Positions 20,980 to 38,223 of a DNA stretch of 38,223 nt are shown piece by piece. Location of the stretch: positions 1-38,223 of the forward strand of contig CACZRB010000073.1 of the NCBI GenBank assembly GCA_902783555.1. The letters run 5' to 3'. The stretch is from an uncultured Erysipelotrichaceae bacterium. Its GTDB lineage: Bacteria; Bacillota_I; Bacilli_A; RF39; UBA660. Under the pieces are notes generated by a model that saw nothing but the letters and a program-made list of their open reading frames with translations, did not search any database and was not told where the DNA came from. The number at the start of each line of letters is the position of its first letter. Position 1 is the stretch's first letter. The translations under genes and the position numbers were made by a program.

Positions 20980-21000
20980 TTTTGACAAATTTTCTAAAAA

Positions 21001-21028: not shown

Positions 21029-21043
21029 GCATAATATTATAAT
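21015..21043 (+). promoter_or_regulatory. hrcA operon promoter, perfect consensus TTGACA-17-TATAAT
   Basis: TTGACA at 21015-21020 and TATAAT at 21038-21043. Confidence 0.8.
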
Positions 21044-21047
21044 GATA

Positions 21048-21074
21048 TTAGCATTTGAATGTTGAAAGTGCTAA
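21048..21074 (+). promoter_or_regulatory. CIRCE operator 2 (degenerate) in the 5' UTR
   Basis: TTAGCATTT-gaatgttga-AAGTGCTAA has exact N9 spacing and three arm mismatches to consensus. It lies between the -10 and the RBS. Confidence 0.7.
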
Positions 21075-21088
21075 AAGGAAGTGATGGT

Positions 21089-22078
21089 GTGAATAATCGT
21101 CAAAAAGAATTGTTAAGGTTAATTGTAGAAACATATATTGATACAGTTAAACCTGTAGGTTCAAAGTCATTAGTTAAAAAATTAAAGTGTTCTAGCGCTA
21201 CAATTAGAAATGATATGGCATATTTAGAAACATTAGGGTATTTAGAAAAAACTCATACATCTAGTGGTAGAGTTCCTAGTGAAGCTGGCTATAAATATTA
21301 TGCTCAAAATCTAATGCAGCAAAAAGAAATAACTAATAGTGAGATGAATAAACTTCAAACTATTTTAGATAACAAGAACTTAGCAACTTCTGATGCTATT
21401 ATTAAATGCATGGAAATAATTAGTGATATAACTAATTATACTAGTGTTGTTTTAGGTAAAGAATCGGATAATAATACTTTAAAACATATTAGTATAGTAC
21501 CAATTGATGATAGAAAAGTTGTCGCAGTAGTAGTTACTAATACAGGCCACGTTGAAAATAATCAGTCTGTAATTCCAGATAGTATTAGTATTAGTGATAT
21601 AGTTAAAGCTTGTGAAATTATAAATAAATCATTAATTGGTACTAAATTATCTGAAATAAATCAAAAATTAGAATATGAAATTAAGCCAGTTATTATTGAA
21701 AAAATTAAAGAATATGATAGTGTAATGAAATTCTTCTATGATGCATTTAATGACTTTACAATGCAAAATAGTGATGTGTTTTTTGGCGGCAAAACTAATA
21801 TTTTAAAACAGCCTGAATATGATGAACCAGATAAGATAAAAGGAATTATTGGTAAACTTGAAAATATTGAACTTGTTAAAAAAATAGAAACTGATGATAA
21901 AGAAATTAATATCTTTATTGGAGAAGAAAATGAATTTGATGATAATGTAACAGTTATTAAAACAAGTTATAATGCAGGTGGTGAAGAAGGTACTATTGCT
22001 GTTATTGGGCCAAAAAGAATGGAATATGACAAAGTAGTATCACTCTTAAATTATTTAAAGACTTACATAGAAAGGTAA
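21089..22078 (+). CDS. hrcA: Heat-inducible transcription repressor HrcA
   Basis: (V/M)NNRQKELLRLIVETYIDTVKPVGSKSLVKK... is the canonical HrcA winged-helix N-terminus. GTG 21089 is preceded by AAAGGAAG. The track start, ATG 21059, lies inside CIRCE 2, so I consider it unlikely. Confidence 0.9.
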   Translation: MNNRQKELLRLIVETYIDTVKPVGSKSLVKKLKCSSATIRNDMAYLETLGYLEKTHTSSGRVPSEAGYKYYAQNLMQQKEITNSEMNKLQTILDNKNLATSDAIIKCMEIISDITNYTSVVLGKESDNNTLKHISIVPIDDRKVVAVVVTNTGHVENNQSVIPDSISISDIVKACEIINKSLIGTKLSEINQKLEYEIKPVIIEKIKEYDSVMKFFYDAFNDFTMQNSDVFFGGKTNILKQPEYDEPDKIKGIIGKLENIELVKKIETDDKEINIFIGEENEFDDNVTVIKTSYNAGGEEGTIAVIGPKRMEYDKVVSLLNYLKTYIER

Positions 22079-22081
22079 TTT

Positions 22082-22630
22082 ATGGAAAATAAAGAATTAG
22101 AAATAAAAAAAGAACAAACAAATCAAAAGGTAGAAAAGAAAAAACATGAAAAACACGAAAAACATGATAAATTAGAAGAGTTAAATCAAAAATTAACCGA
22201 AGCCTTAAATGAAGAAAAGGCTAAAAACATGCGAATTAGTGCAGAAATGATTAACTTTAAAAAGCGCAAAGAAGATGAACTTAGTACATATTTAAAATAT
22301 GCTAATGAAGGATTAGTTACGGATTTACTTCCAATTGTAGATAATTTTGAACGAGCTATTAAAATGGACACCCCAGATTTAACTGATGAACTTAGCAGAT
22401 TCTTAGAAGGATTTAAAATGATTTATACGAATTTAATAAATATTTTAAATAAATGTGAAGTTAAAGAAATAGTTGCTGAGGGAGTTGAATTTGATCCTAC
22501 TTATCATCAAGCGGTTTTAACTGAAAAAGATGAAAATAAACCTGCAGGAGTAGTACTTGAAGTACTTCAAAAAGGTTATATGTATAAAGATAAAGTTATA
22601 AGACCAGCAATGGTTAAGGTTAATGAATAA
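22082..22630 (+). CDS. grpE: Nucleotide exchange factor GrpE
   Basis: Coiled-coil N-terminus, then R..AE..N..KR, LLPV.DNFERA, HQAV and V.Q.GY.....VIRPA.V.V. Confidence 0.95.
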   Translation: MENKELEIKKEQTNQKVEKKKHEKHEKHDKLEELNQKLTEALNEEKAKNMRISAEMINFKKRKEDELSTYLKYANEGLVTDLLPIVDNFERAIKMDTPDLTDELSRFLEGFKMIYTNLINILNKCEVKEIVAEGVEFDPTYHQAVLTEKDENKPAGVVLEVLQKGYMYKDKVIRPAMVKVNE

Positions 22631-22685
22631 ATATAAAAATTACTCGAAGAATAGGCAAAATGCCTGATATAAATGAAAGGAATGA

Positions 22686-24506
<1,821 letters not shown>

Positions 24507-24512
24507 AGAAAT

Positions 24513-24542
24513 TAAGTTCTAGATTTCTAGAACTTATTTTCT
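24513..24542 (+). terminator. Rho-independent terminator directly after dnaK
   Basis: Palindrome TAAGTTCTAGA-tt-TCTAGAACTTA followed by TTTTCT. Confidence 0.75.
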
Positions 24543-24560
24543 TGAATTAATGGAGGATTA

Positions 24561-26351
24561 ATGAAAATATACAAGTCAAGAAATGAAGTGCCAGACAAAT
24601 ATAAATGGGATTTAAAAGAGTATTTTTCGAGCAATAAAGAATTTAATAAAACATACGATAAATGTATTAAACTTATTGATAAAATAGATGATTATAAAGG
24701 TAAAATTAATAAACCTGATAAGCTATATGAATATCTTAAATTAGATGAAGAAATTATGATTATGGTTGAAAATCTTTATGTTTACGCTTATTTAATGAAT
24801 GATCAAGAATTAGGAGTTAGTTCATCAATTGAAAATAAAAGTAAAGCGGAGAATTTAATGGCTTTATATGAAAGCAAAGTATCCTTTTTTGCTCCTGAAT
24901 TATTAAATTTATCTAAAGAAGAGTATACTGCTTTATTTAAAAATAAAAATTTATGTTTTTATAAAGATTTATTAGATAAAATTTATCGTGCGAAGTCACA
25001 TATTTTAAATGAAGAAAATGAAAAAATTATTACTCTTTTAGATTCTTCAATGAACCATTTTGATGATTTATCTTCAACTATGTTAAATAGTGCTCATGAT
25101 TATGGTAAAGTAAAAATAGATAACCATGTAACTCAAATAACTTCAACTAACTATTCAAAATTAATAAAAAGCAAAAATACAAATATACGTAAAAAAATAT
25201 ATAGACAATATTCAAAAGTATTAGATCAATATGGGGATATATCTGCCGGACTTTTAAATGCGTTTGTTAAAAGTCAGAGTACTAATGCTATACTTCATAA
25301 ATATAAAAATAGTTGGGATAATAAATTGTTTAATAATAATATGCCTAATGAAGCATATGAATCCTTAGTTAAAAATGTAGAAGGAAATATTTCATCTTAT
25401 CAAAGATATCTTAAATTATTTAAAAAATTACATAAGTTAAATATATTACATCTTTATGATTTAAATTTAGATGTAGTAAAAGGTGCAAGGGAATATACCG
25501 TAGAAGAAGCAAAAGATTTAGTTTTTAATTCTATTAAAGTATTAGGGCCAGAATATCAAGAAAAATTTCAAAAAATATTTGACAATCATTATATTGATTA
25601 TATGCCTTATAAAGGAAAATGCTCTGGTGGATATTCATTTTCAACTAGTACTACTAATTCCCGTATTTTGATGAGTTATAATGGAGATTTATCAAGCATT
25701 TCAACCATTGCTCATGAAGGTGGACATAATGTACATCATCAATTTGTTAAAGATAATAATCCTGTAATATATCGTAATGTTACATCTTTAGTTAGTGAAG
25801 TTGCATCCCTTACGAATGAATGTTTACTTTCATCATATCTAGTTAAGAATGCTAAAAGTAAAGAAGAAAAACTTATGGGGCTTTCAAATATTATTGGGGT
25901 AATTAATTCAAACTTGTTTGGTGCTGTTCGTGAAGGCAAAATGGAACAAGAATTTTATAAACTTGTTGATAATGGTGGAACAATAACTAAAGAATACATG
26001 GATAATTTAACAATTGATTCTTTAAAGAAATATTATGGTAATATAGTTAAATTAGATAAATATTCAGGCGTTTCATGGACTAGAAGAAGCCATTACTATA
26101 TGTTTTATTATTTATATGCATATTCATTTTGCATATCAATTGCTGCTTATGTAGCTAATGAAATATTAAATGGCAATAAAATAGTACTAGCTAAATATCT
26201 TGAATTCTTAAAAACTGGTTCTGATAAATGGCCAATTGAAGCTTTCAATGTCCTTGGTGTTGATTTAACTAAAGATGATGTATATTTAGGCGCAATTAAG
26301 TATTATAATTCATTACTTGACGAATTTGAAAGATTAATAAAGGAGAATTAA
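24561..26351 (+). CDS. pepF: Oligoendopeptidase F (M3B metallopeptidase)
   Basis: About 600 aa with zinc motif HEGGHNVHH (HExxH) and the M3B-typical N-terminus KYKWDL. RBS GGAGGA. Confidence 0.9.
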   Translation: MKIYKSRNEVPDKYKWDLKEYFSSNKEFNKTYDKCIKLIDKIDDYKGKINKPDKLYEYLKLDEEIMIMVENLYVYAYLMNDQELGVSSSIENKSKAENLMALYESKVSFFAPELLNLSKEEYTALFKNKNLCFYKDLLDKIYRAKSHILNEENEKIITLLDSSMNHFDDLSSTMLNSAHDYGKVKIDNHVTQITSTNYSKLIKSKNTNIRKKIYRQYSKVLDQYGDISAGLLNAFVKSQSTNAILHKYKNSWDNKLFNNNMPNEAYESLVKNVEGNISSYQRYLKLFKKLHKLNILHLYDLNLDVVKGAREYTVEEAKDLVFNSIKVLGPEYQEKFQKIFDNHYIDYMPYKGKCSGGYSFSTSTTNSRILMSYNGDLSSISTIAHEGGHNVHHQFVKDNNPVIYRNVTSLVSEVASLTNECLLSSYLVKNAKSKEEKLMGLSNIIGVINSNLFGAVREGKMEQEFYKLVDNGGTITKEYMDNLTIDSLKKYYGNIVKLDKYSGVSWTRRSHYYMFYYLYAYSFCISIAAYVANEILNGNKIVLAKYLEFLKTGSDKWPIEAFNVLGVDLTKDDVYLGAIKYYNSLLDEFERLIKEN

Positions 26352-26352
26352 C

Positions 26353-27480
26353 ATGGCTAAAAAAGATTTTTATGAAGTATTAGGTGTCAGTAAAACTGCT
26401 ACAGAAGCTGAAATAAAAAGTGCATTTAGAAAAAAAGCTAAAATGTATCATCCAGATAATAAAGAAACTGGAAATGCTGAAAAGTTTAAAGAAGTAAGCG
26501 AGGCTTATGGAGTACTTTCTGATGCAACTAAAAGAAAACAATATGATCAATTTGGATCTGCTGCTTTTGATAATAATGCCGGTGGATTTTCTGGCTTTGG
26601 CGGTGGATTTGATGGCTTTGGTGGTGGCTTTTCTGGCTTTGGCTTTGAAGACATTAACCTAGGTGATATATTTGAACAAATGATGGGTGGCGGCAGATCT
26701 AGAAGTTCATCAAAAAGAAGTGCTAAAGGGCAAGATGTGTTAGTTAAACTAGATTTAACTTTTGAAGAAGCCGTTTTTGGTACAGAAAAGACATTCAAGA
26801 TAAATCTTGATGAAATATGTTCAGAATGTAATGGTAAAGGTGGTAAAAATCCGCAAAAATGTAGTACTTGTAACGGTAGGGGTAGTGTAATTAGAGAGCA
26901 ACGTAGTATATTAGGTATGATTCAGACTCAGACTACTTGTCCTGATTGTCATGGTACTGGTGAAATATTTAAAGAAATTTGTTCTCATTGTCGTGGTAAA
27001 GGATTTGTAAGTACTAGTAAAGAAATTAAACTAAAAGTACCAAGCGGTGTTGATAATGGTGATCAAATGCGTATGGCTGGTAAAGCAAATGCAGGTATAA
27101 ATGGTGGCCCGAATGGGGATATTTATATTGAGTTTACTGTAAAAAATCATCCATTATATAAAAGAGATGGCAAAGATTTATATTTAGTAGTTCCTTTAAC
27201 TGTTACTGAAGCGGTACTGGGTTGTAAAAAAGAAATACCGACTATTTATGGTAATGAGACTGTTACCTTTGCACCTGGTACACAAAATAATGAAAATATT
27301 AAATTAAAAGGTAAAGGAATAGATGATAAGAAAACTGGCAAATTAGGAGATATGTATTTAATTACCAATATTATTATTCCAACTAAATTAGATCGTAACC
27401 AAAAGTCTTTATTTAACGAATTAAATGATACTAAATTAGATAATGAAGAAGCCTTTAAAAAATTCAAGAAATATTTATAA
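26353..27480 (+). CDS. dnaJ: Co-chaperone DnaJ (Hsp40)
   Basis: J-domain with YHPD, a G/F-rich linker and four CxxCxGxG zinc-finger repeats. The ATG lies 1 nt after the pepF stop. Confidence 0.97.
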   Translation: MAKKDFYEVLGVSKTATEAEIKSAFRKKAKMYHPDNKETGNAEKFKEVSEAYGVLSDATKRKQYDQFGSAAFDNNAGGFSGFGGGFDGFGGGFSGFGFEDINLGDIFEQMMGGGRSRSSSKRSAKGQDVLVKLDLTFEEAVFGTEKTFKINLDEICSECNGKGGKNPQKCSTCNGRGSVIREQRSILGMIQTQTTCPDCHGTGEIFKEICSHCRGKGFVSTSKEIKLKVPSGVDNGDQMRMAGKANAGINGGPNGDIYIEFTVKNHPLYKRDGKDLYLVVPLTVTEAVLGCKKEIPTIYGNETVTFAPGTQNNENIKLKGKGIDDKKTGKLGDMYLITNIIIPTKLDRNQKSLFNELNDTKLDNEEAFKKFKKYL

Positions 27481-27506
27481 AGTTCTTTAAAGAACTTTTT
27501 TCTTTT
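27479..27506 (+). terminator. Rho-independent terminator after dnaJ
   Basis: Stem AAAGTTC/GAACTTT followed by TTTTCTTTT. Confidence 0.7.
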
Positions 27507-27531
27507 GATATAATAAATTATAGGTGAGATC

Positions 27532-28035
27532 ATGAATAAAGATGATTTTAAAAAGAAAATATTAGAATGGCTTCCATACATAATAATAATTATTATAGTT
27601 ATTTTAATTAGAACATATTTATTTACTCCAATTAGAGTAAATGGAACTAGTATGTATCCTACATTAAAACAAAATGATTTAATGATTTTAAATAAAATAG
27701 GACTATCTAAAGGAATAAATAGATGGGATATCGTAGTTGTTAAGGAAGATAATAAATATATCATTAAAAGAGTAATTGCTCTTCCTGGTGAATCAGTAGC
27801 ATATATTGATGGAAAACTTTATATAAATAAAAAACAAGTAGATGATAATTATTCTTTAAGTAATACTAAAGATTTTAATGAGATCTATTTAAAAGATAGT
27901 GAATATTTTGTCATGGGAGATAATAGGGCAGTATCAGCTGATAGCAGATCAATTGGACCAGTTACTAAAGAACAGATATTAGGCAAAACTCATATAAGAT
28001 TTTTTCCATTTAATGAAATAGGTAATGTTGAATGA
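27532..28035 (+). CDS. lepB: Signal peptidase I (S26A, Ser/Lys P-type, SipS-like)
   Basis: N-terminal TM helix, catalytic-Ser box NGTSMYPTL, Lys box IKRVIALPGE and GDNRAVSADSR. TGA stop. Confidence 0.92.
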   Translation: MNKDDFKKKILEWLPYIIIIIIVILIRTYLFTPIRVNGTSMYPTLKQNDLMILNKIGLSKGINRWDIVVVKEDNKYIIKRVIALPGESVAYIDGKLYINKKQVDDNYSLSNTKDFNEIYLKDSEYFVMGDNRAVSADSRSIGPVTKEQILGKTHIRFFPFNEIGNVE

Positions 28036-28934
28036 ATACGTATTTATTAAATATTTATAGTATTAGATTATTAAATGATGAAATAAACAAAATAACATCT
28101 GGTAAAGAAAACATTGTAAATATTAATTATGATGAATCTAATATTGATAATGTTTTAGATGAATGCGCTTATTTTTCGCTTCTAAATGAAGAAAAAATAG
28201 TTATCGTTAAAAATTTTAAAATTAATGCATCTAGTAAAGTTCTTGAAAAATATTTAGATAATCCTAATCCGAATACTAAGTTAATATTAGTGGTAGATTC
28301 ATTAGATAAGCGTAGTAGTATTTATAAAAAGATAAAAGATAAAGGTACTGTCATTGAAATAGCTGAATTAAAGGCAAATGAACTTGCTAATAAAGTTAAT
28401 AATTATGCCAAAAGTATTGGGGTCTCAGTTGATTATTCATCTGTTAATAAACTAATAGAATACAATTTAAATAATTATGATTTAATCTTAAATGAAATAG
28501 ATAAAATATCAATTATAACTAATAAAATAACTTCTGATATAGTCGAATCTTATAGTGCTAAATTAAATGGCGAAGATACCTTTGGATTATGTGATGCGAT
28601 AACTAGCAAGAATTATAAAAATACAAGTGAACTTGTAGAAAAATTCATAATTGAAAAGATGGAAGTAGTTCCACTAGTTGCTCTTTTAGCTGGACAGTAT
28701 CGAATTATTTATGCAACTAAGGAATTAAATGAATCTAATGAATCAATTGCTGCTAAGTTAAATATTCATCCATATAGAGTTAAACTTGCTAAGGATAAAG
28801 CTTATTTATACAGTAAAGATGAATTAAAAAACATTATTTTGAATTTATGTGATTTAGATAAAAATTTAAAATCATTAAATGTTAATCAGTATACTTTATT
28901 AAAAGAATTCTTAATTAAATTAGTTAATATATAA
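28032..28934 (+). CDS. holA: DNA polymerase III delta subunit
   Basis: The 300-aa protein has HolA-like layout and motifs. ATGA overlap with lepB. The call rests partly on size and context, so confidence is moderate. Confidence 0.75.
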   Translation: MNTYLLNIYSIRLLNDEINKITSGKENIVNINYDESNIDNVLDECAYFSLLNEEKIVIVKNFKINASSKVLEKYLDNPNPNTKLILVVDSLDKRSSIYKKIKDKGTVIEIAELKANELANKVNNYAKSIGVSVDYSSVNKLIEYNLNNYDLILNEIDKISIITNKITSDIVESYSAKLNGEDTFGLCDAITSKNYKNTSELVEKFIIEKMEVVPLVALLAGQYRIIYATKELNESNESIAAKLNIHPYRVKLAKDKAYLYSKDELKNIILNLCDLDKNLKSLNVNQYTLLKEFLIKLVNI

Positions 28935-28958
28935 TTGGTATATAGAAAAGAAGAACTA

Positions 28959-28987
28959 TTGATTTATGGAAATACTTTTGATATAAT
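28959..28987 (+). promoter_or_regulatory. Orphan strong promoter, TTGATT-17-TATAAT with TG extension
   Basis: TTGATT at 28959-28964, TGaTATAAT at 28979-28987, directly followed by the perfect 9-bp palindrome TATGCAAAT-gaa-ATTTGCATA (28991-29011). There is no substantial ORF downstream. Confidence 0.5.
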
Positions 28988-28993
28988 GAATAT

Positions 28994-29118
28994 GCAAATG
29001 AAATTTGCATAAAATTAAAAAGGAAACATATCAGTTTTGTGATGCTGAATGTCTACCTAATGAAGAATGTGACATTTAAGTCTTATAATTAAATTACAAG
29101 GCTTAGATGTCTATTTTA
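28994..29118 (+). ncRNA. Candidate small RNA or leader of unknown class (promoter to hairpin plus T-run)
   Basis: The predicted start lies after the -10 above. A 12-bp stem GACATTTAAGTC (29071-29082) / GGCTTAGATGTC (29100-29111), with two G-U pairs, is followed by TATTTTA. The only ORF is 16 codons (29042-29092) and has no proper RBS. Confidence 0.3.
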
Positions 29119-29325
29119 ATTACAAGTTCTTTTGTTTATAGCATCAACCTCCTTCTAATTTTTATAGTAAAATCAGATAAAGATTTCTGAAAGGGGCAGA
29201 CACCTAGCAACTAATATATTTCCTTATTTAATTGTACCAAATGGAGTATATATTGTAAATATATTTCTTTCTAATTGATTAACTTTTTTATTTTAAATTA
29301 ACTTATAAAAAATTTGTAAAAATAA

Positions 29326-29354
29326 TTGACTTATTCTATTAAAAAAGATACAAT
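29326..29354 (+). promoter_or_regulatory. Promoter of the T-box leader (TTGACT-17-TACAAT)
   Basis: TTGACT at 29326-29331 and TACAAT at 29349-29354. Confidence 0.65.
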
Positions 29355-29360
29355 AATTAT

Positions 29361-29568
29361 TGTAAATTACTAGAAGAAACAAAGGGTTTACTTTATTTAT
29401 TCAAGAGAAGATATGTTTGGTGCAAATATCTATAAATAGTAAATTTCGAGACAGTTCTTTAATGATGTAAACGTGTTATTCGCGATAAGAATTATAGAGC
29501 GCAAGTGAAATAAGGTGGCACCGCGGGGGAACTCGTCCTTATGTAATTTGTGCTTTTATTTATTTTAA
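29361..29568 (+). promoter_or_regulatory. T-box riboswitch leader upstream of hisS-aspS-asnS
   Basis: Stem I elements are AGAGA (29404-29408), distal loop GGTGCAA, and a specifier-loop candidate CGA-GAC-A (29447-29453). The conserved T-box sequence AATAAGGTGGCACCGCG is at about 29508-29524, followed by a helix and the T-rich tract GCTTTTATTTATTTT. Confidence 0.85.
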
Positions 29569-29583
29569 GAAAGGATTGATAAA

Positions 29584-30843
29584 ATGATTACTAAACAAAA
29601 GGGAACTTATGATATCTCAGGAGACGATGCTAAAAAAAGAGAATATGTAAATGAAATAATAAGGGGAATATGTGAAAAATATAATTATAATTATATTGAA
29701 ACTCCAGTATTTGAAGCATCAGAACTATTTCATCGTAGTGTTGGAGAAACTTCTGATGTAGTAAAAAAAGAAACTTATGATTTTCTAGATAGAGGAGAGC
29801 GTAATCTTACCTTAAGACCAGAAGGAACTGCAGGTGTTGCTAGATGGTTTATTGAAAATAAATTATATGGTAATATGACTGAACCTGTAAAAGTGTTTTA
29901 TAATGAAAAAATGTATCGTTATGAAAGACCACAGTCAGGTAGAAATAGAGAATTTACTCAATTTGGAGTAGAATTTATTGGTTCTGATGATGTAATGGCA
30001 GATGTTGACGTAATATCACTTGCATATCAAACTTATTCGCTTTTAGGACTAGATACTGTAATTAAAATTAATTCTTTAGGTGATACTGAATCTAGAGATA
30101 ATTATCGTAAGGCACTAGTTGATTATTTAGCGCCACATATAGATGAGTTATGTGAAGATTGCAAAGAAAGATTAAATAAAAATCCCCTTAGAGTATTAGA
30201 TTGTAAAATAGATGGTGATTCAGATATTATTGCATCAGCTCCTAAAACAACTCAGTATTTAAATCAGGAATCATTAGATAGATATAATAAATTAAAAGAT
30301 TACTTGGATTTATTAGAAATACCTTATGAAGAAGATGACAGATTAGTTAGGGGTTTAGATTATTATAATCATATAGTATTTGAAATCTATGCTGATATTC
30401 CCAATGTTGGACACCTAGCCCTTGGTGGTGGTGGTCGTTATAATGGACTAATCAAAAAGTTAGATGGACCAGATATGCCAGCTGTTGGTTTTGCAATGGG
30501 ATATGACCGAACAATGCTTGCTATTGAAGAAGCAGGTAACAATATTCCAATAAAAAAAGATATAGATGCTTATGTAATGTATGTATCTGATAGTGAAAAA
30601 GAAACTGCTGCTTTTATAACTCAAAACTTAAGACTAAATGGTTTTACAACTGAAACGGATTATTTAAATAAAGGATTAAAAGGTGAGTTTAAATCAGCAG
30701 ATAGATTTAATGCTAAATATTTGGTTATACTAAATGATGAAGACTTAGCAAAGAATGAAGTAAATGTTAAAGATAATGTAACTAAAGAAGAAGAAAAAGT
30801 TAATATAAATGATTTGATAGATTATTTAGATATGCACGATTAA
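29584..30843 (+). CDS. hisS: Histidine--tRNA ligase
   Basis: Class II motifs, LRPEGTA, YRYERPQ.GR.REF.Q.G.E..G, GGGRYNGL, and a C-terminal anticodon-binding domain. Confidence 0.96.
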   Translation: MITKQKGTYDISGDDAKKREYVNEIIRGICEKYNYNYIETPVFEASELFHRSVGETSDVVKKETYDFLDRGERNLTLRPEGTAGVARWFIENKLYGNMTEPVKVFYNEKMYRYERPQSGRNREFTQFGVEFIGSDDVMADVDVISLAYQTYSLLGLDTVIKINSLGDTESRDNYRKALVDYLAPHIDELCEDCKERLNKNPLRVLDCKIDGDSDIIASAPKTTQYLNQESLDRYNKLKDYLDLLEIPYEEDDRLVRGLDYYNHIVFEIYADIPNVGHLALGGGGRYNGLIKKLDGPDMPAVGFAMGYDRTMLAIEEAGNNIPIKKDIDAYVMYVSDSEKETAAFITQNLRLNGFTTETDYLNKGLKGEFKSADRFNAKYLVILNDEDLAKNEVNVKDNVTKEEEKVNINDLIDYLDMHD

Positions 30844-30852
30844 GGAGAAAAT

Positions 30853-32607
30853 ATGGAAAGAATATATAATGAAACTTTAAACTTAGATAAATTAAATGAA
30901 AAAGTAACTCTTTATGGTTGGGTTCAAAAGAAACGTAATTTAGGTGGTTTAATCTTTATTGATTTAAGAGACCGCAGTGGTATAGTACAACTAAGAGTAA
31001 AACCCGAAAATAAGAATTATGATTTAGCTGAAAGTTTAAAAAATGAATATGTTATTAAAGTTCAAGGAATAGTTGTTGAAAGAGAAAGTAAAAACCCTAA
31101 ATTAAAAACTGGTGATATTGAAATTGAAGTTAATGATTTAGAAATATTAAATACTTGTGAAGAATTACCATTTACTATAGATGATAATACTAATGCCTTA
31201 GAAGATACCAGATTAAAATACCGTTACTTAGATATTAGAAGAAATAAATTAAAAGAGAATTTATTCTTAAGAAATGAAGTATTACATTATATTCGAAATA
31301 AAATGTATGATTTAGGTTTTATTGAAGTACAAACGCCAATTTTAACTGCATCTAGCCCAGAAGGAGCTAGAGACTTTGTTGTTCCATCTCGTAACTTTAA
31401 AGGAAAGTTTTATGCTTTACCACAAGCGCCTCAAATATATAAAGAATTATTAATGGTTGGTGGCTTTGAAAAGTATTTTCAAATAGCGCCTTGTTTTAGA
31501 GATGAAGACCCAAGAGCTGATCGTACATTAGAATTTTATCAATTAGACCTTGAAATGTCATTTTGCACTGAAGAAGATGTTTTAAATATTGGCGAAGAAA
31601 TATTTTATGATACATTTAGTAAGTTTTCTGACAAACATGTCTCTCCTAGACCATTTAGAAGAATCTCTTATTTAGATGCAATTGATTTATATGGTACTGA
31701 TAAACCAGATTTAAGATATGAAATGCTTATTAATGACATAACCGATACTTTTAAAAATAGTGATTTTACAGTATTTAAAAACGTAATTGAAAGTAATGGT
31801 ATTATTAACGCTATTGTTGCTAAAGATGCTGCTAATAAGTATTCAAGGAAGGATATTGATAAGTTAACTGAAGTTGTTAAAAAACGTGGAGCATCTGGCT
31901 TAGCTTATTTAAAAATAGATGAAGAAATAACTGGAAGTATTGCTAAATATATATCTGAAGAAGAAGTAAATAATTTAAAAGAAAAATTAAATCTTCAAAA
32001 TAATGATTTAGTATTTATTGTATCAGGGCCTAAAAAAACAGTTAAAGCATCTTTAGGTGCTTTAAGAATTGAAGTTGCTACCTTTTTAGATATAATTCCA
32101 AAAGATCGTTTAGAATTATGTATTGTTAATGATTTCCCAATGTTTGAATATGATGAAGCAAATAAAAAATGGGATTTTTGCCATAATCCATTTAGCTTAC
32201 CACATGATGGAATTGACGCTTATAAAAATAAGAATTATGAAGACATTTTAGCTTATCAATATGACTTTGTATGTAATGGTAATGAGATGGCTAGTGGCGC
32301 AATTAGAAATCATGATTTAGAATCACTTGCTAAAGGATTTGAAATAGTAGGATATTCGAGAGAAGAAGTAGAAAAAAGATTTAGATCTATCTTTACAGCC
32401 TTTAAGTATGGCTGCCCACCCCATGGTGGTATGGCTCCTGGAATTGACAGAATTCTTATGCTTATTCAAGATGAGCCTAATTTAAGAGAAGTTCAAGCGT
32501 TTCCACCAAGTGCATCTGGTCAAGATTTAATGATGGGTGCTCCATCTGATTTAACACCAGTTCAATTAGAAGAATTAGGTATTATAATAAAGAAAGGAAA
32601 TGAATAA
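30853..32607 (+). CDS. aspS: Aspartate--tRNA ligase (bacterial type)
   Basis: N-terminal OB fold (GWV...R.LGGLIFIDLRDR.G), FRDED.RADR, QLDLEMSF, the bacterial insertion domain and GG.A.GIDR..ML. Confidence 0.96.
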   Translation: MERIYNETLNLDKLNEKVTLYGWVQKKRNLGGLIFIDLRDRSGIVQLRVKPENKNYDLAESLKNEYVIKVQGIVVERESKNPKLKTGDIEIEVNDLEILNTCEELPFTIDDNTNALEDTRLKYRYLDIRRNKLKENLFLRNEVLHYIRNKMYDLGFIEVQTPILTASSPEGARDFVVPSRNFKGKFYALPQAPQIYKELLMVGGFEKYFQIAPCFRDEDPRADRTLEFYQLDLEMSFCTEEDVLNIGEEIFYDTFSKFSDKHVSPRPFRRISYLDAIDLYGTDKPDLRYEMLINDITDTFKNSDFTVFKNVIESNGIINAIVAKDAANKYSRKDIDKLTEVVKKRGASGLAYLKIDEEITGSIAKYISEEEVNNLKEKLNLQNNDLVFIVSGPKKTVKASLGALRIEVATFLDIIPKDRLELCIVNDFPMFEYDEANKKWDFCHNPFSLPHDGIDAYKNKNYEDILAYQYDFVCNGNEMASGAIRNHDLESLAKGFEIVGYSREEVEKRFRSIFTAFKYGCPPHGGMAPGIDRILMLIQDEPNLREVQAFPPSASGQDLMMGAPSDLTPVQLEELGIIIKKGNE

Positions 32608-33977
32608 TGGATTTAGTAGATTTATTTAAAACTAAAAAAATAGGTGATAAGGTTGTCATCGAAGGATGGATACGTAATAATCGTAATCAAAAAGAATTTG
32701 GGTTTATTGATTTCTATGATGGAACAACTATTAATACTTTACAAGTTGTTTATACTAAAGAATTGTCTAATTTTGATGAAGTAAGTCATTACTTAGTAGG
32801 TTCTAGTATTAGAATAAGTGGAACTTTAGTAGAATCTAATGGTAAGCAAGAATATGAATTAAAGTGTGAAAATATTGAATTATTAGGAGATTGTCCAGCA
32901 GATTATCCAATTCAACCTAAAAGACATACAATGGAGTTTTTAAGAAAGGAAGCATATTTAAGACCTAGAACTAAAACATTCCAGGCTGTCTTTAAAATTA
33001 GAAGTGTAGCAGCATTTGCTATTCATGAATACTTTCAAAGTCATAACTATGTTTATGTACATACACCACTTTTAACTAATACTGACTGTGAAGGGTCTGA
33101 TCAAATGTTTAAGGTAACAACGTTTGATTTAAAAAATGTCCCTTTAAATGACCAAAAAGAAGTAGATTTTACTAAAGATTTATTTGGTAAAAATACTTAT
33201 ATTACTGGTTCAGGTCAATTACATGGAGAAGCTTTTGCAATGGCTTTTAAAAAGATTTATACTTTTGGGCCAACTTTTAGAACTGAAAACTCAAATACTA
33301 AAACTCATGCTAATGAATTCTGGATGATTGAGCCAGAAATGGCATTTATGCATTTAGAAGATTTAATGAATGTTGAAGAAGAAATGCTTAAATATGTAGT
33401 TAATTATGTATTAAAAAATGCGTCAGATGAAATAGATTTCTTAGATAAATTTGTTTCTAATGGTTTAAGAGAAAAACTAGAAAAATTAATTAGTTCTGAT
33501 TTTGTTAGAATTACTCATCATGATGCGATTGAACTTTTACTTTCATCTGGTGAAAAATGGGAATTTGCTCCTGATTATGAAGGAGATATTGCTAAAGAAC
33601 ATGAAAGATGGCTTACTGATCATTTTAATAGTCCTGTCTTTATTTATAACTGGCCAAGAGATATTAAAGCTTGGTATATGAAAGTTAATCCAGATGGTAA
33701 AACAGTAGCAGCTGTTGATTTAGAAGTTCCTGGTTCAGGGGAACTAATGGGTGGTTCTGAAAGAGAAACTGACCTTAGTATTTTAGATGAGCAAATTAAG
33801 AAACATGGTGTTCAAAAAGACCAAATAGAATGGTATTTAAATTTAAGAAGATTTGGTGGAGTTTATCATTCAGGTTTCGGTATGGGCTTCGAAAGACTTA
33901 TTATGTACTTAACTGGTATTGAAAATATTCGTGATGCGATTCCATTCCCAAGAACACCTGGTTCATGTGAATATTAA
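32607..33977 (+). CDS. asnS: Asparagine--tRNA ligase
   Basis: GW.RN.R......F....DG, FRTENSNT..H..EFWM.EPE.AF, GFG.GFERL..Y.TG..NIRD.IPFPR. TAATG overlap with the aspS stop. Confidence 0.95.
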   Translation: MDLVDLFKTKKIGDKVVIEGWIRNNRNQKEFGFIDFYDGTTINTLQVVYTKELSNFDEVSHYLVGSSIRISGTLVESNGKQEYELKCENIELLGDCPADYPIQPKRHTMEFLRKEAYLRPRTKTFQAVFKIRSVAAFAIHEYFQSHNYVYVHTPLLTNTDCEGSDQMFKVTTFDLKNVPLNDQKEVDFTKDLFGKNTYITGSGQLHGEAFAMAFKKIYTFGPTFRTENSNTKTHANEFWMIEPEMAFMHLEDLMNVEEEMLKYVVNYVLKNASDEIDFLDKFVSNGLREKLEKLISSDFVRITHHDAIELLLSSGEKWEFAPDYEGDIAKEHERWLTDHFNSPVFIYNWPRDIKAWYMKVNPDGKTVAAVDLEVPGSGELMGGSERETDLSILDEQIKKHGVQKDQIEWYLNLRRFGGVYHSGFGMGFERLIMYLTGIENIRDAIPFPRTPGSCEY

Positions 33978-33998
33978 AATAAATAAGGATAACTTATA

Positions 33999-34532
33999 AT
34001 GAATATTGTATTTTTGGATATTGATGGAGTATTAAATAGTCTAAATTATTTTATAGAAAGAGAACCCAAGGTTTTAGAATTATATCAAAATGAGAATTAT
34101 AATAAAGATACTTTTTTAAAACTAAAAAGATTAATGTTAGATATCGATATTAATAAAGTAAAAGTATTAAAAGAAATTATAGATGAAACAAAGTCATTAG
34201 TTGTAGTAATTTCTTCTTGGAAAAATATGGGGACTTTTTCTTATGTTCAAAATGAACTAATTAAAATGGGGATTCCCATAATAGGCATTACAGATGATTG
34301 TAATTCTAATCGGGGAGCGGGAATAAAAAATTATTTACAAGAAAACAATGTTCAAAAATATATTATCTTAGATGATGAAATATTTGACGACTATGATGTA
34401 GAATTATTATCACATTTAGTAAAAACATCATTTAATAAAAATGGACTTACAAATAAGCATAAATCCATAGCTATTAAGATGATGATAAACAATAATATTG
34501 GAGGTAATAAATGTTTAGTAAAGAAGAAATAA
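33999..34532 (+). CDS. HAD-superfamily-like small protein (FLDIDGVLN motif I)
   Basis: The N-terminus MNIVFLDIDGVLNS carries the DxDG nucleophile motif, VVISSW is a candidate motif II and ILDD a candidate motif IV. 177 aa. Substrate unknown. Confidence 0.6.
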   Translation: MNIVFLDIDGVLNSLNYFIEREPKVLELYQNENYNKDTFLKLKRLMLDIDINKVKVLKEIIDETKSLVVVISSWKNMGTFSYVQNELIKMGIPIIGITDDCNSNRGAGIKNYLQENNVQKYIILDDEIFDDYDVELLSHLVKTSFNKNGLTNKHKSIAIKMMINNNIGGNKCLVKKK

Positions 34533-34801
34533 TAAATTATGCTGATAAATTATTAATTGGTTTAACCGATGAAGAAGCCAATATGCTTTTAGATGAATTT
34601 GATATAATTGATAAAAATATTGATCAAATAAATGAAATAGAAGGTTTATCTGAAGTAGAGCCTGCTTTTATGCCATTTAATTTATATACAGCCACATTAA
34701 GAGAAGATAAGGTGGAAGAATCTGTAGATGTTGATGTGGCTTTATCTAATACTAAAGATAAACTAGGCCGTGAAATAAGAGTGCCAAAGGTGGTGGATTA
34801 A
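34511..34801 (+). CDS. gatC: Asp/Glu-tRNA amidotransferase subunit C
   Basis: 96 aa with a GatC-like sequence (A.LA.I.L...E.......L..IL.....L.E.D....EP). It directly precedes gatA and overlaps the HAD-like gene by 22 nt. Confidence 0.88.
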   Translation: MFSKEEIINYADKLLIGLTDEEANMLLDEFDIIDKNIDQINEIEGLSEVEPAFMPFNLYTATLREDKVEESVDVDVALSNTKDKLGREIRVPKVVD

Positions 34802-36235
34802 ATGTTTGAAGGAATAGAAGAATTACGTAAGAAATTAGATAGTGGTAAATTAAAAGTCAAAGATTTAGCCCAACAAGCGGTAGATGCTTCAAAAAAAGTA
34901 AATAGTAAATGCAATGCTTTTGTAACTATTATTGATAAACCTAAAATAAAAGAAAATAAAAAAAGTATTTTATCTGGAATTCCATATTCTGCTAAAGATT
35001 TATTTTCTACTAAAGGTATTTTAACAACTGGTTCATCTAATGCACTAAAAGATTATATACCATTTTTTGATGCTACCGTTATTTCTAGATTAAAGAAAAG
35101 TGGGGCTGTTTTAACAAGTAAAAGTGCTTGTGATGAATTTGGTTTAGGTGGTACTGGTACTACTTGTCATACAGGAATAGTTAGAAATCCTTATGATGAA
35201 AATCGTGAAGCTGGAGGTTCATCAGCTGGTTCAGCAGTAGCAGTTGCCTCTGGTGTTGTTCCATTTGCACTAGGTACTGATACCGGAGATTCTGTAAGAA
35301 AACCCGCATCATTTTGTGGAATAGTAGGATATAAGCCTACATATGGATTAATACCTAGATATGGTGTCTTACCATTTGCATCATCACTAGATCATGTTGG
35401 AGTATTTACCAGAAGTGTAAAAGATGCTGCTATTGTAGTCGATAGTATTAAAGGACCAGATAGCAAAGATATGACAGCTTTACCTAAAACAGATGATTTA
35501 ACCCCTTTATTAGATGGAAATGTAGAAGGTAAAAGATTATTCTATATTAAAGAAATATGTGATATTAGATCTTATGATAATCCATCTGATGAACTAAAAA
35601 AATCTATTAAATTATTTAATGAAATAATAGAAAAAGCTAAAAAACTTGGTATGCAAGTAATACCTGAGTCTATAGATCAAAAACTACTTAATGCTATTCA
35701 ACCAACATATCAAGTTATAAGTTGTGCTGAAGCAACTAGTAATCTTTCAATGTATACTGGTATTATTTATGGCCCAAGAGGAAATGGTTCTAATATTAAT
35801 GAAATGGTAAAAGATTATCGTGCTCATGGTTTTAGTTCTTTAATTAAAAGAAGATTAGTAATAGGTTCTTATGTTTTACAAAAAGAGAATCAAGAAAGAT
35901 ATTATTTAAATGCTTGCCGTGTACGCCAAATGATAATTGATAAATTTAATGAATTATTTACACAGTATGATGGCTTTATTACTCTTGCAAGTGGAGGAGG
36001 AGCACCACTATTTGATGGCAAAACTGAAGTATTATCTAATGAAGCTGTATTAGAAAATCATCTTGCAATTGGTAACTTTGGGGGATTTCCTTCAATTACT
36101 ATACCAGCGGGATTCATAAATAACCTACCAATAGGTATTAATATTACTGGTAAAGTACAAGATGATGTAAATGTATTAAATATAGCTTATGCTTTAGAAA
36201 AAGATATTAAATTTAAAGGAGGATTACATGAGTAA
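34802..36235 (+). CDS. gatA: Asp/Glu-tRNA amidotransferase subunit A
   Basis: Amidase signature GGSSAGSAVAVASG....ALGTDTGDSVR.PA.FCG..G.KPTYG. Confidence 0.96.
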   Translation: MFEGIEELRKKLDSGKLKVKDLAQQAVDASKKVNSKCNAFVTIIDKPKIKENKKSILSGIPYSAKDLFSTKGILTTGSSNALKDYIPFFDATVISRLKKSGAVLTSKSACDEFGLGGTGTTCHTGIVRNPYDENREAGGSSAGSAVAVASGVVPFALGTDTGDSVRKPASFCGIVGYKPTYGLIPRYGVLPFASSLDHVGVFTRSVKDAAIVVDSIKGPDSKDMTALPKTDDLTPLLDGNVEGKRLFYIKEICDIRSYDNPSDELKKSIKLFNEIIEKAKKLGMQVIPESIDQKLLNAIQPTYQVISCAEATSNLSMYTGIIYGPRGNGSNINEMVKDYRAHGFSSLIKRRLVIGSYVLQKENQERYYLNACRVRQMIIDKFNELFTQYDGFITLASGGGAPLFDGKTEVLSNEAVLENHLAIGNFGGFPSITIPAGFINNLPIGINITGKVQDDVNVLNIAYALEKDIKFKGGLHE

Positions 36236-37655
36236 ATATGAAGTTGTAATAGGATTAGAAATACATGCAGCAGTACTTTCTAATACTAAAGTATTTAGTC
36301 CAAGTAAGAATTCATATTCAGATGTTCCTAATGAAAATATTAATGAAATAGATTTATCATTTCCTGGAATTATGCCTTCTTTAAATAAAGAAGCAGTACG
36401 TAAAGCTTTAAAAATGAGTATGGTATTAGGTTGTGTGCAGCCTGATGAATTAATGTTTGATCGTAAAAACTATTATTATCCTGATTTACCTAAAGGCTTT
36501 CAAATTACACAAGTTACTAAACCTGTCGGTATAAATGGAAAAGTAGAACTATACGTTGATAATCATGATTTTACTGTTAATATTCATGATATTCATTTAG
36601 AAGAAGATACAGCTTCTATGGATCATTATGATTATTATACTCTAATTGATTATAATCGTGCAGGCACTCCTTTAGTAGAAATTGTTACTGAACCATGTAT
36701 TCATTCTGGTGAAGAAGCAGTTGCTTTCTTAGAATTTTTAGCTAATAGTTTAAGATATTGTAATGTATCAGATGCTGATATGAAAAAAGGACATTTAAGA
36801 TGTGATGTTAATATTAATTTAAAAAATGAAAATGGAGAATTTATTACTCCAAGAGTTGAAATTAAAAATGTTGGCTCAATATCTTATGTTCTAGATGCAG
36901 TAAATTATGAAGTAGCAAGACAAATTAAAGCATATGAAACTGGAATAGAAGAATTAGTTCAAGAAACAAGAAGATTTGATGAAGCAACTAAAACTACTAT
37001 TAGAATGCGTACTAAAGAAGATGCGGTTGATTATAAATATTTTGTAGAGCCAAATATTCCAAGAATTAAAATCGATAAATCTTGGTTAAAAGAAATAAGA
37101 AAAGAAATACCATCTCTTCCAAACGAAAGATTAAAAAGATATATTAAAGAATATAGTTTATCTGAAAGTGAAGCAAAAACACTTGTAAAAGACTTTGAAC
37201 TTAGTAATTATTATGAAGAATGTATAAAGATAGGTATTAATCCCAAAGTTGCTTTTAACTGGTTATCTACTAATATTATAGGTTATTTGAATAAAGAATT
37301 TATGACCATTAGAGATTTTTATATAACACCTAATTATTTAAAATTCATTGTTGATAAAATTAATAGTGGAGAGATATCATCTAAACAAGGAAAAGAACTA
37401 TTTAATTATTGTTTAGAAGAAAAAGAAGAACCAAGCATTTTAATGAAGAAACATAATTTAAAACAAATGGATAATTCTAATGAATTAGAAGGAATTATTG
37501 ATAATATTTTAAAGAATAATCTTAAATTAATAGAAGATTATCATAATGGTAAAACTAATTTGTTTGGATTCTTTATTGGTGAAGTTATGAAACAAACTAA
37601 AGGAAAGGCTAATCCAGTTATAGCTAAACAAATATTAACTGATAAGTTAAAATAA
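36228..37655 (+). CDS. gatB: Asp/Glu-tRNA amidotransferase subunit B
   Basis: YE.VIGLEIH..L...TK.F, FDRKNYYYPDLPKG.QI.Q, DYNR.G.PL.EIV.EP, CDVN.., and the C-terminal GatB/YqeY tail. Confidence 0.96.
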   Translation: MSKYEVVIGLEIHAAVLSNTKVFSPSKNSYSDVPNENINEIDLSFPGIMPSLNKEAVRKALKMSMVLGCVQPDELMFDRKNYYYPDLPKGFQITQVTKPVGINGKVELYVDNHDFTVNIHDIHLEEDTASMDHYDYYTLIDYNRAGTPLVEIVTEPCIHSGEEAVAFLEFLANSLRYCNVSDADMKKGHLRCDVNINLKNENGEFITPRVEIKNVGSISYVLDAVNYEVARQIKAYETGIEELVQETRRFDEATKTTIRMRTKEDAVDYKYFVEPNIPRIKIDKSWLKEIRKEIPSLPNERLKRYIKEYSLSESEAKTLVKDFELSNYYEECIKIGINPKVAFNWLSTNIIGYLNKEFMTIRDFYITPNYLKFIVDKINSGEISSKQGKELFNYCLEEKEEPSILMKKHNLKQMDNSNELEGIIDNILKNNLKLIEDYHNGKTNLFGFFIGEVMKQTKGKANPVIAKQILTDKLK

Positions 37656-37682
37656 TTAATATTTCAAATTTTTAAAATATGT

Positions 37683-37720
37683 AAGCAATCCTAGATAAAT
37701 AATGGGATTGCTTTTAATTT
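37683..37720 (+). terminator. Rho-independent terminator after gatB
   Basis: Stem AAGCAATCC/GGATTGCTT followed by TTAATTT. Confidence 0.75.
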
Positions 37721-37724
37721 ATTC

Positions 37725-37753
37725 TTGTTTTTGTATATCATATTATGTATAAT
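37725..37753 (+). promoter_or_regulatory. Promoter of the small hydrophobic-peptide transcript (TTGTTT-17-TATAAT)
   Basis: TTGTTT at 37725-37730 and TATAAT at 37748-37753. The predicted start, near 37760, coincides with the 5' arm of the long-range helix. Confidence 0.55.
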
Positions 37754-37843
37754 TAGATTTAGAGATGAGATATTATTTTTGGCCTTTCGGATTTTTCGCG
37801 ACTCTATAAAGGGGGGTTAATAAAATTGGAAGGAGAGATTACT

Positions 37844-37969
37844 ATGGAAATAGTAGAATTTATTTTGCTTATTTTCATATTTATTCTTTTACTGATTGTA
37901 AATAACTTATTACATTATGTTTTAATGTTATTACAGTACGTAACAAAAACACTACCTAAAAATAGGTAG
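37844..37969 (+). CDS. 41-aa hydrophobic peptide, candidate type I toxin
   Basis: MEIVEFILLIFIFILLLIVNNLLHYVLMLLQYVTKTLPKNR. Strong RBS GGAAGGAGAG lies 6-7 nt upstream and the C-terminus is basic. The ORF is below the size cutoff of the supplied ORF track. Confidence 0.55.
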   Translation: MEIVEFILLIFIFILLLIVNNLLHYVLMLLQYVTKTLPKNR

Positions 37970-38017
37970 TGACCCAAATACCGAAAGGTGATGGGATTAA
38001 TAATCTCATCTCTTTCT
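37945..38017 (-). ncRNA. Candidate cis-antisense antitoxin sRNA overlapping the 3' end of the peptide mRNA
   Basis: A minus-strand promoter TTGTAA-17-TAAAAT is present (plus-strand coordinates 38052-38047 and 38029-38024). The perfect 9-bp hairpin CACTACCTA/TAGGTAGTG (37950-37971) is followed by TTTTT on the minus strand only (37949-37945). Confidence 0.45.
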
Positions 38018-38117
38018 TTTTTAATTTTAGCATATCAATTAGGATATTACAAGTAAAAAAGACTTGCTAGAATCTCTACTAATATTGTAAAATATAAATA
38101 GATAATTGGAGGCACCT

Positions 38118-38223
38118 ATGACAAGTAATAAAAAGGTAATTATTAGTTTATCTATAATAGGATTATTATTAGTAAGTTTAGCTATTAGTTATGCTTATTT
38201 TAGTGCTAAAATAACTAATAATG
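38118..38223 (+). CDS. Start of another TYAYF-family (SipW-type-like signal peptide) surface protein; 3' end outside window
   Basis: GGAGG at 38108-38112, then ATG 38118: MTSNKKVIISLSIIGLLLVSLAISYAYFSAKITNN... Confidence 0.75.
   Translation, partial: MTSNKKVIISLSIIGLLLVSLAISYAYFSAKITNN

Follow-up and report, generated by a model that had tools for sequence, protein, structure and literature searches.

What is encoded in the 462-nt spacer that separates the end of gatB from the gene starting at 38118 in this uncultured Erysipelotrichaceae bacterium? The whole stretch of DNA analysed in the present study, referred to as the window, is 38,223 nt long and has a base composition of 26% GC; all of its gene-like ORFs lie on the + strand, and no - strand genes were observed. 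A first-pass annotation had described in this spacer a compact unit resembling a type I toxin-antitoxin (TA) module, comprising a hydrophobic 41-aa peptide, an mRNA whose two ends pair with each other and a convergent antisense RNA. Upon re-checking of the sequence, every element of that description was located where it had been placed, and the elements of the unit jointly exceed chance. The case for a small membrane peptide and for two transcripts that converge draws on several independent signals in the sequence.

Setting and sequence signals of the unit

The context of the unit is chromosomal and housekeeping (gatCAB), neither prophage nor plasmid. The upstream gene order is hisS, aspS, a class II D/K/N-type synthetase gene, HAD, gatC, gatA and gatB, with gatB (36228-37655, + strand) as the last gene of the cluster; the gene downstream, also on the + strand, is a surface-protein gene whose 630-aa product has no Pfam domain. 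The closest named genomes are MAGs of rumen "uncultured Erysipelotrichaceae", the GatB proteins of which are 81-84% identical. The unit has the conserved gatB terminator on one side and the promoter of the following gene, likewise conserved, on the other, and carries its own signals inside these borders. Terminator-like sites number three in 2.2 kb, compared with 0.2 expected, and two of the three lie inside the unit.

The Shine-Dalgarno (SD) sequence GGAAGGAGAG (37828-37837, + strand) is located 6 nt ahead of an ATG at 37844, its AAGGAG core (37830-35) lying 8 nt upstream of this codon, and is followed by a 41-codon ORF encoding MEIVEFILLIFIFILLLIVNNLLHYVLMLLQYVTKTLPKNR (37844-37969 including the stop codon, TAG at 37967-69). 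Initiation at a TTG further upstream (37826), which is in frame, would extend the peptide to 47 aa. The earlier description of a strong SD and a transmembrane (TM) ORF with a basic tail was confirmed in all of its parts: the maximum Kyte-Doolittle score is 3.0-3.5, AlphaFold2 places residues 2-36 in one helix (pLDDT 92.8), no Pro or Gly occurs before residue 38, and the C-terminal tail, KTLPKNR, is basic. Membrane toxins of type I systems are small (<60 aa) and hydrophobic, with one alpha-helical TM segment and usually a cationic C-terminus (PMC8309996), and the 41-aa ORF shows this combination of a small one-TM hydrophobic peptide and a cationic end. When both strands of the 38 kb were scanned for ORFs of 25-80 codons with an ATG 4-10 nt past an SD core, four were obtained, and a strongly hydrophobic segment was observed only in the 41-codon ORF; a looser scan of all spacers in the window revealed no other free-standing candidate ORF. 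No leader ORF overlaps the 41-codon ORF. Codon usage was ambiguous: none of the six frames scores higher than that of the ORF, but in a likelihood test its score was lower than that of all windows from real genes and fell among the highest-scoring fifth of antisense frames. T-rich sequence yields a hydrophobic ORF for free, and hairpin arms take up much of this ORF.

The annotation had also anticipated that pipelines would miss the ORF. In a collection of 15 billion proteins, neither the 41-aa nor the 47-aa sequence has an exact match, and no gene was called at the ORF on a longer contig carrying the same locus (L016); thus, annotation pipelines do miss it, as expected.

Upstream of the ORF, a putative promoter for the peptide mRNA, TTGTTT-17-TATAAT, is present on the + strand at 37725-37753 (-35 at 37725-30, -10 at 37748-53). 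The presence of these hexamers was as described; however, the site carries little significance by itself, as it has only 3/6 matches at the -35 and falls below the scan threshold, and promoter-like sites in the scanned region are no more frequent than in shuffles. Promoter-like hexamers are common in DNA of 26% GC. The ends of the transcript were set from the signals, with the +1 placed 7-8 nt past the -10 and the 3' end at the U-run of the terminator, giving a predicted peptide (toxin) mRNA of ~262 nt (37761-38022, + strand). Its 5' UTR measures ~83 nt, in agreement with the ~84 nt proposed earlier, and its predicted intrinsic terminator (37983-38022, + strand) consists of a 15-bp interrupted stem at 37983-38016 and a U6 run at 38017-22.

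On the opposite strand, the proposed TTGTAA-17-TAAAAT promoter, the 9-bp hairpin with a T5 run on the minus strand only and the resulting RNA of ~73 nt were all recovered as signals. The putative antisense promoter (38052-38024, - strand) has an extended -10, TGcTAAAAT. The pattern TTG-N17-TGnTAWAAT occurs twice in 76 kb (both strands of the window) against 0.38 expected, a count that is indicative, as the pattern was chosen post hoc. Approximately 70 nt downstream of this promoter, a perfect 9-bp hairpin (37950-37971), the top-ranked terminator-like site in 19000-38223, takes in the final codons of the ORF together with its stop codon. It is followed by T5 at 37949-37945 on the - strand and by no T-run on the + strand, and is thus a putative intrinsic terminator in the - direction only. 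The antisense RNA predicted from the promoter and terminator signals, the antitoxin candidate, would span 37945-38017 (- strand, ~73 nt) and would be complementary to the entire 3' UTR as well as to the stop codon and the seven codons before it (35-41).

Predicted folds of the two RNAs

The minimum free energy (MFE) of 37760-38022 is -77.6 kcal/mol, compared with -45.5 +/- 4.0 kcal/mol in dinucleotide shuffles (z = -8.03), and 0/200 shuffles folded as well. The reverse complement reaches -56.7 kcal/mol (z = -5.85), so that the + strand folds better by 21 kcal/mol, and neither the 5' UTR nor the start-codon hairpin folds on the - strand; the structure is therefore one of the + strand RNA. Within the mRNA, the 3' domain has z = -7.04, and a second hairpin inside the ORF (37890-37942, z = -2.08) is also part of the MFE fold.

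The panhandle claimed in the annotation rested on two inverted repeats, both of which are perfect: an 11-nt repeat (37761-71 / 38003-13) and an 8-nt repeat, CCTTTCGG / CCGAAAGG (37783-90 / 37981-88), with TTTCTTTTTT following the inverted-repeat arms. The window contains this two-arm pattern a single time, where chance would give 0.00, and further copies of the 11-nt arm were absent from the window even when one mismatch was allowed. In both the MFE and the centroid fold, the 5' arm (37761-37775) pairs with 37998-38013 to form a closing helix that contains the 11-nt repeat. In other words, the first 15 nt after the inferred +1 are predicted to pair with the bases directly ahead of the terminator U-run, and the descending arm of the mRNA terminator is at the same time the 3' arm of the closing helix. 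The closed form is ~7 kcal/mol better than a conformer with a local terminator hairpin. The second half of the claim did not stand in the MFE fold, in which CCTTTCGG and CCGAAAGG are not paired with each other, the CCUUU being engaged with the SD. A fold constrained to contain both repeat pairings is only 2.6 kcal/mol worse and partly frees the SD, the P(unpaired) of which becomes 0.33 compared with 0.12.

The ribosome-binding site is deeply buried in these predictions, so that the mRNA displays the highly structured form with a hidden SD that is typical of type I toxins. An anti-SD segment in the 5' UTR (CUUUC.GAUU, 37784-37793) pairs with 37824-37833 (AAUU.GAAGG) in the MFE, the mean P(unpaired) of the SD being 0.12, and a start-codon hairpin (37835-37888, z = -4.15) buries the AUG, whose P(unpaired) is 0.004, together with the 3' half of the SD. 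At a transcript length of ~130 nt this hairpin is predicted to be in place, and both the SD and the AUG remain buried in all longer transcripts, irrespective of how the 3' end is folded. In the models, the sequestration of the SD and AUG is local, through the 5'-UTR anti-SD and the start-codon hairpin, and not via the 3' tail. An additional proposal, that the CU-rich 3' tail pairs with the SD, found no place here: seven Watson-Crick pairs and one G-U pair could form, but the predicted folds do not use them.

For the antisense RNA, the predicted fold (-22.1 kcal/mol, z = -3.69) consists of two hairpins with a single-stranded linker of 11 nt between them. Its hairpin loops contain only 3-4 nt, which was counted against the TA reading. 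The duplex between the antisense RNA and the mRNA reaches -127.8 kcal/mol. Folded by itself, the 3' domain of the mRNA leaves single-stranded the stretch that lies opposite the linker, and it is plausible from the modelled structures that the linker would make the first contact with the mRNA.

Homologues and distribution in relatives

No diverged homologue was detected in the protein, metagenome, viral, plasmid or phage collections searched. The peptide had no match among 5.8 billion proteins in a word-indexed search, none among 1.84 billion representatives with phmmer, and none in a back-translated scan of JGI metagenome contigs and viral contigs. Pfam, NCBIfam, PADLOC and PHROGs returned only noise with the peptide, in keeping with the earlier remark that it resembles no nameable toxin family. 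At the DNA level, blastn against plasmids and phages gave only short AT-rich chance matches. The two-arm pattern had 16 matches in metagenomes, all in unrelated simple-repeat or GC-rich sequence, and none in viral contigs, where the hairpin-plus-CCGAAAGG pattern was likewise absent. A second copy of the unit was found neither in the window nor in ~30 related loci, and the search for further copies of the peptide that the annotation had suggested yielded, across all collections, nothing beyond identical assemblies. For the RNA itself, Rfam 15 at the gathering score gave no match anywhere in the window, and a scan of 37500-38223 on both strands at E up to 10 returned only eukaryotic snoRNA/miRNA noise. 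The permissive scan is a fair negative, as the same mode recovers a T-box at 29362-29543 (E = 6e-15, 69.5 bits) that the gathering cut-off had missed.

The unit is carried by three assemblies, the window and two others, and is identical across them. One (L016) is the contig identical to the window over the whole overlap, including 100% identity in the unit. The other (L025) derives from another sample and has a different GatB allele, and its unit is also 100% identical. The identity extends over 336 nt, where a local divergence of ~0.6% would lead one to expect ~2 changes; with flank divergence this low, the identity says nothing on constraint.

Synteny was followed through GatB relatives at 78-92% identity. 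In L023 and L024, which fall into the same 90% GatB cluster as the window, the unit is missing from a spacer of 138 nt, and the promoter and SD of the downstream gene are retained. In L018 (GatB 92%), ~37728-37969 is missing, and apparently also 37981-37998; TTGACC is kept at the -35 position, and TGACCTAAATA, TCTCATCT plus a T-run and a region homologous to 38015-38060 are retained. From the aligned sequence, this pattern looks like the decay of an ancestral copy, in which the ORF and the antisense terminator were lost together. A more distant relative (L043, GatB 85%) has TTGACT-17-TATAAT after the gatB terminator, in the same register as the promoter in the window, and then the tail-like AATTTCATCTTTTC before the contig ends. 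Other lineages have unrelated genes after gatB. Because nearly all lineages have sequence of their own downstream of gatB, synteny yielded no diverged copy. The unit is accessory, being wholly or partly missing in close relatives, and its left border, which includes the promoter, does not coincide with the inverted repeat. As to whether the locus is conserved as a unit, which the annotation had made a test of its reading, conservation was observed only as identical copies, whereas relatives with GatB at least 90% identical have either no unit or a remnant, an outcome that comes close to going against the reading.

A candidate type I module and its alternatives

On the strength of the sequence signals and the modelled folds, we consider the chances about evenly balanced that this unit, a candidate at present, is a chromosomal type I toxin-antitoxin module whose architecture is bsrG/SR4-like; judged from sequence, it is plausible as a sequence-orphan member of type I, with a peptide of no described family. 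The same SD, ATG and TM ORF would also be expected of a gene for a non-toxic small membrane protein, the mRNA of which would be structured by chance and the level of which might be tuned by a cis-antisense RNA, without addiction. The chromosomal housekeeping context would suit such a gene, and small membrane proteins are widespread among Gram-positive bacteria (PMC10730256). However, a sequestered ribosome-binding site, an end-to-end closed mRNA and a convergent antisense unit are the hallmark of a product that is kept off, and the unit has been lost in close relatives, so that we regard this explanation as unlikely. The very strong strand-specific fold, which is also found inside the ORF, the almost complete inaccessibility of the AUG and SD in the predicted ensemble and the atypical codon usage of the ORF could instead reflect non-coding RNA, namely a structured + strand sRNA of ~260 nt from an undescribed class, with or without the antisense RNA, in which the ORF would be a by-product of U-rich arms. 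Such an RNA had no Rfam match even at E up to 10, in the mode that recovers the T-box, and conservation of its structure would have no homologues to support it; moreover, the occurrence of AAGGAG 8 nt before the ATG of the only strongly hydrophobic small ORF in the window would be an unlikely accident, and the candidate frame scores best of six. A purely non-coding unit is thus quite improbable.

The perfect 11-bp terminal inverted repeats, together with the presence of the unit in some close relatives and its absence from others, might suggest a MITE or the relic of a mobile insertion, with the repeats as transposase sites and the RNA features incidental. This reading was rejected and is very improbable: the unit is single-copy in 38 kb and absent from ~30 related loci, with unrelated matches in metagenomes and none in viral contigs, the repeats have no flanking target-site duplication, and the borders of the indel relative to L018 and L023 lie outside the repeats, ~33 nt beyond the left one, so that the promoter is removed too, while L018 retains part of the right arm. 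The position of the unit between gatB and the next + strand gene, with a terminator at its end, raised the further idea of a leader, attenuator or second terminator region governing read-through from gatB into the downstream surface-protein gene. It was also rejected, its probability being slight in the extreme, as gatB is already followed, ahead of the unit, by a conserved terminator of its own, L023 keeps the independent promoter and SD of the downstream gene without having the unit, and entirely different genes follow gatB in relatives.

The type I reading draws its detail from bsrG/SR4. In the probed structure of the bsrG mRNA, nt 1-35 and nt 232-262 come together in a helix, P1, and the SD is double-stranded; the complementarity of SR4 takes in the terminator as well as the 3' half of P1 (PMC3834814). 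The likeness to the probed structures (PMC3834814; PMC6562991) extends from dimensions (a hydrophobic toxin of 38 aa and an mRNA of ~294-296 nt, compared with 41 aa and ~262 nt here) to layout: a long helix, predicted in the present unit, closes the 5' end of the mRNA onto the segment adjoining the terminator, the SD is double-stranded, as probed in bsrG and predicted here, and a convergent antitoxin RNA covers the 3' end of the mRNA, the terminator and the 3' half of the closing helix (37945-38017 against 37761-75/37998-38013). There are also differences. SR4 has ~180 nt, whereas the antisense RNA here would have ~73 nt, with an overlap of ~73 nt; no clear extension of the SD helix is seen in the folds predicted with the antisense target blocked; and bsrG/SR4 resides in a prophage, whereas this unit has a housekeeping location. 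In addition, the closing helix is predicted here to use the terminator's own descending arm as its 3' strand, so that a single strand would be contested by the 5' end, the antisense RNA and the terminator itself. At the level of family-library searches (Pfam and NCBIfam for the peptide, Rfam for both strands of the RNA), no similarity to BsrG or SR4 came up at E up to 10. The annotation had likened the closure to the fold-back inhibition of hok mRNAs, but bsrG is the nearer parallel: the closure corresponds to the bsrG design (PMC3834814), and the predicted antisense RNA lies at the 3' end. The panhandle is thus not a hok-type novelty in a Firmicute, the bsrG mRNA architecture having already been published; of the TA reading originally put forward, the anatomy of the 3'-overlapping type I systems of Firmicutes survives, whereas the hok-like novelty and the burial of the SD by the 3' tail do not.

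Convergent RNAs pairing at their 3' ends are also the arrangement of txpA/RatA in the skin element of B. subtilis and of C. difficile modules such as CD2517.1/RCd8. Newly found type I toxins of Clostridioides difficile, too, were unannotated and had no sequence homologues at the time (PMC6563280). The toxins of these systems are longer than the present peptide (50-59 aa), their overlaps are also longer, and they are located in prophages, in the skin element or beside CRISPR arrays; no sequence similarity of the unit to txpA/RatA or to the C. difficile modules was found. Antitoxins of the RatA type act by RNase III-dependent degradation and leave SD pairing unchanged (PMC6562991; PMC3834814). 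In the present models, the P(unpaired) of the SD goes from 0.12 to 0.08 when 37945-38017 is blocked, and as the SD is still buried, degradation would be likelier than translational control as the mode of antisense action. No route to translational activation of the peptide is evident, which counts against the TA reading, as do the codon usage of the ORF, the ease with which T-rich sequence yields hydrophobic ORFs, the weak + strand promoter, the housekeeping setting and the failure to find a diverged homologue.

Herein, we propose how the unit would work if it is a type I module. A promoter just past the gatB terminator would give rise to the ~262-nt mRNA for the 41-aa single-helix membrane peptide. 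This mRNA would be stable and translationally silent, its 5' end being closed onto the descending arm of the terminator, its SD paired with the upstream CCUUU anti-SD and its AUG held inside a hairpin. The convergent ~73-nt antisense RNA would start beyond the mRNA terminator and stop at the minus-only terminator in the last codons of the ORF. By analogy with txpA/RatA and bsrG/SR4, its binding would open the closing helix and form a long RNase III duplex, leading to degradation of the mRNA; the exposed 5' end and the RNase III substrate would both be consistent with RatA-like degradation.

A bolder version takes all of these parts jointly and sees in the unit the first representative of a type I toxin family, so far unrecognised, from uncultured rumen Erysipelotrichaceae, a proposition that we hold to be unlikely. 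According to this version, three partners, namely the antisense RNA, the mRNA 5' end and the terminator's ascending arm, would compete for the pyrimidine-rich strand at 37998-38016, the antitoxin would strip the 5' end from the closing helix, and the spacer downstream of gatB would be a recurrent landing site for small cassettes in the clade. In a literature search, no report of type I systems in rumen Erysipelotrichaceae (a lineage of 26% GC) was found. If the type I reading were confirmed, a sequence-orphan toxin family from rumen Erysipelotrichaceae would be added to the type I systems, and the bsrG/SR4 design would exist outside Bacillus prophages, in a housekeeping spacer. The understanding of the type I mechanism would be unchanged even then. 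Such units are invisible to annotation, yet may be detected by RNA fold and signal geometry alone.

Two further groups of type I systems share some of these features. In hok/Sok of plasmid R1 and aapA1/IsoA1 of Helicobacter pylori, pairing of the 5' and 3' ends keeps the full-length mRNA inert and the toxin is a small membrane peptide, as the present unit would have it; there, it is the 5' leader that the antitoxin binds, the mRNA must be trimmed at its 3' end to become active, and a leader ORF, mok, is present in hok. Here, by contrast, the antisense RNA is directed at the 3' end, and the burial of the SD and AUG is independent of the 3' end. Membership in hok/Sok is not indicated, as there is no match to Pfam HOK_GEF, no overlapping leader ORF, and the antisense signals lie at the 3' end. 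The par system of Enterococcus faecalis pAD1 (fst RNA I/RNA II) is similar in its Firmicute host, its convergent transcripts and its membrane toxin of ~33 aa. Fst-family toxins share an APxxxG motif (PMC8309996); the peptide, with no Pro or Gly in its helix and no Pfam or NCBIfam match, shows no sign of Fst/Ldr (par) membership. Furthermore, RNA II of par also pairs through 5' direct repeats (PMC3834814), and in the present unit, in contrast to par, each of the two predicted RNAs has a terminator hairpin of its own.

The spacer downstream of gatB in related genomes

Small cassettes apparently have a hot spot in the spacer downstream of gatB. In relatives with a GatB 84% identical to that of the window, a small unit unlike the candidate toxin-antitoxin module was observed 3' of gatB on three contigs (L020, 4426-4702; L046, 3426-3702; L002, 5420-5631), and on L020 the spacer that holds it is located upstream of lepA. 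This unit comprises a hairpin, CCACCTAAC...TTAGGTGG, the 3' arm of which is the SD of a 16-codon ORF, MAKLGTAILNVPFYFM, followed by a terminator. The unit matched no Rfam family, and its fold z was only -1.9.

In another relative (contig L043, GatB 85% identical), a near-consensus promoter, TTGACT-17-TATAAT, and after it a short putative transcript start are located at 3487-3565. The distance register of this promoter from the gatB terminator is the same as that of the promoter of the window's module; the contig stops after the short transcript start, which ends in AATTTCATCTTTTC, a sequence resembling the 3' arm of that module. In addition, a metagenome scan with the two-arm inverted-repeat pattern of the module matched a dozen contigs (L026, L029-L032, L034, L035 and L037-L041) from two JGI samples, Ga0114932 and Ga0209992. 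These contigs are packed with GAGATGAGATGGTA-type short repeats and were rejected as unrelated to the module.

The T-box leader upstream of hisS and two promoters in the same spacer

Real RNAs are missed by the Rfam gathering cut-offs in this 26% GC genome. A T-box leader is located upstream of hisS (29362-29543, + strand; 69.5 bits, E = 6e-15), and because this score is below the T-box gathering score of 93, the Rfam scan of the whole window with default gathering cut-offs reported nothing, this leader included. Two promoters on the + strand were recognized from sequence signals in the same spacer (28935-29583). The T-box has its own promoter, TTGACT-17-TACAAT, at 29326-54, and approximately 370 nt upstream of the T-box lies the second match in the window to the extended -10 pattern, TTGATT-N-TGATATAAT (28959-28987).

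Possible surface-protein ORFs and a promoter overlapping an inverted repeat

Two + strand spacer ORFs with N-terminal membrane anchors, of 27 aa (12661-12744) and 81 aa (18713-18958), are located just upstream of, and separate from, the long ORFs of a Cadherin-like protein (12905) and a DUF285 protein (18975), respectively. The motif (I/V)(T/S)YAYFSA(K/R)I is common to both and recurs where the gene at 38118 begins (compared over 38118-38223). Each of these anchor ORFs may belong to a surface-protein gene that is frameshifted or split, or may reflect an assembly error. A 521-aa ORF starting at 16073 (+ strand) has a prepilin-type N-terminus (G/F-x-x-x-E), MKIRNNKGFVMIETIIVMS (16073-16160), and the adjoining 564-aa ORF (start 14370) begins with MKKGFIATT; no Pfam domain was found in either ORF.

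A perfect consensus promoter, TTGACA-17-TATAAT, is located at 21015-21043 (+ strand). It shares sequence with an 11-bp inverted repeat (21028-21001), which is scored as a terminator on the - strand, and this site (21001-21043) may be an operator.
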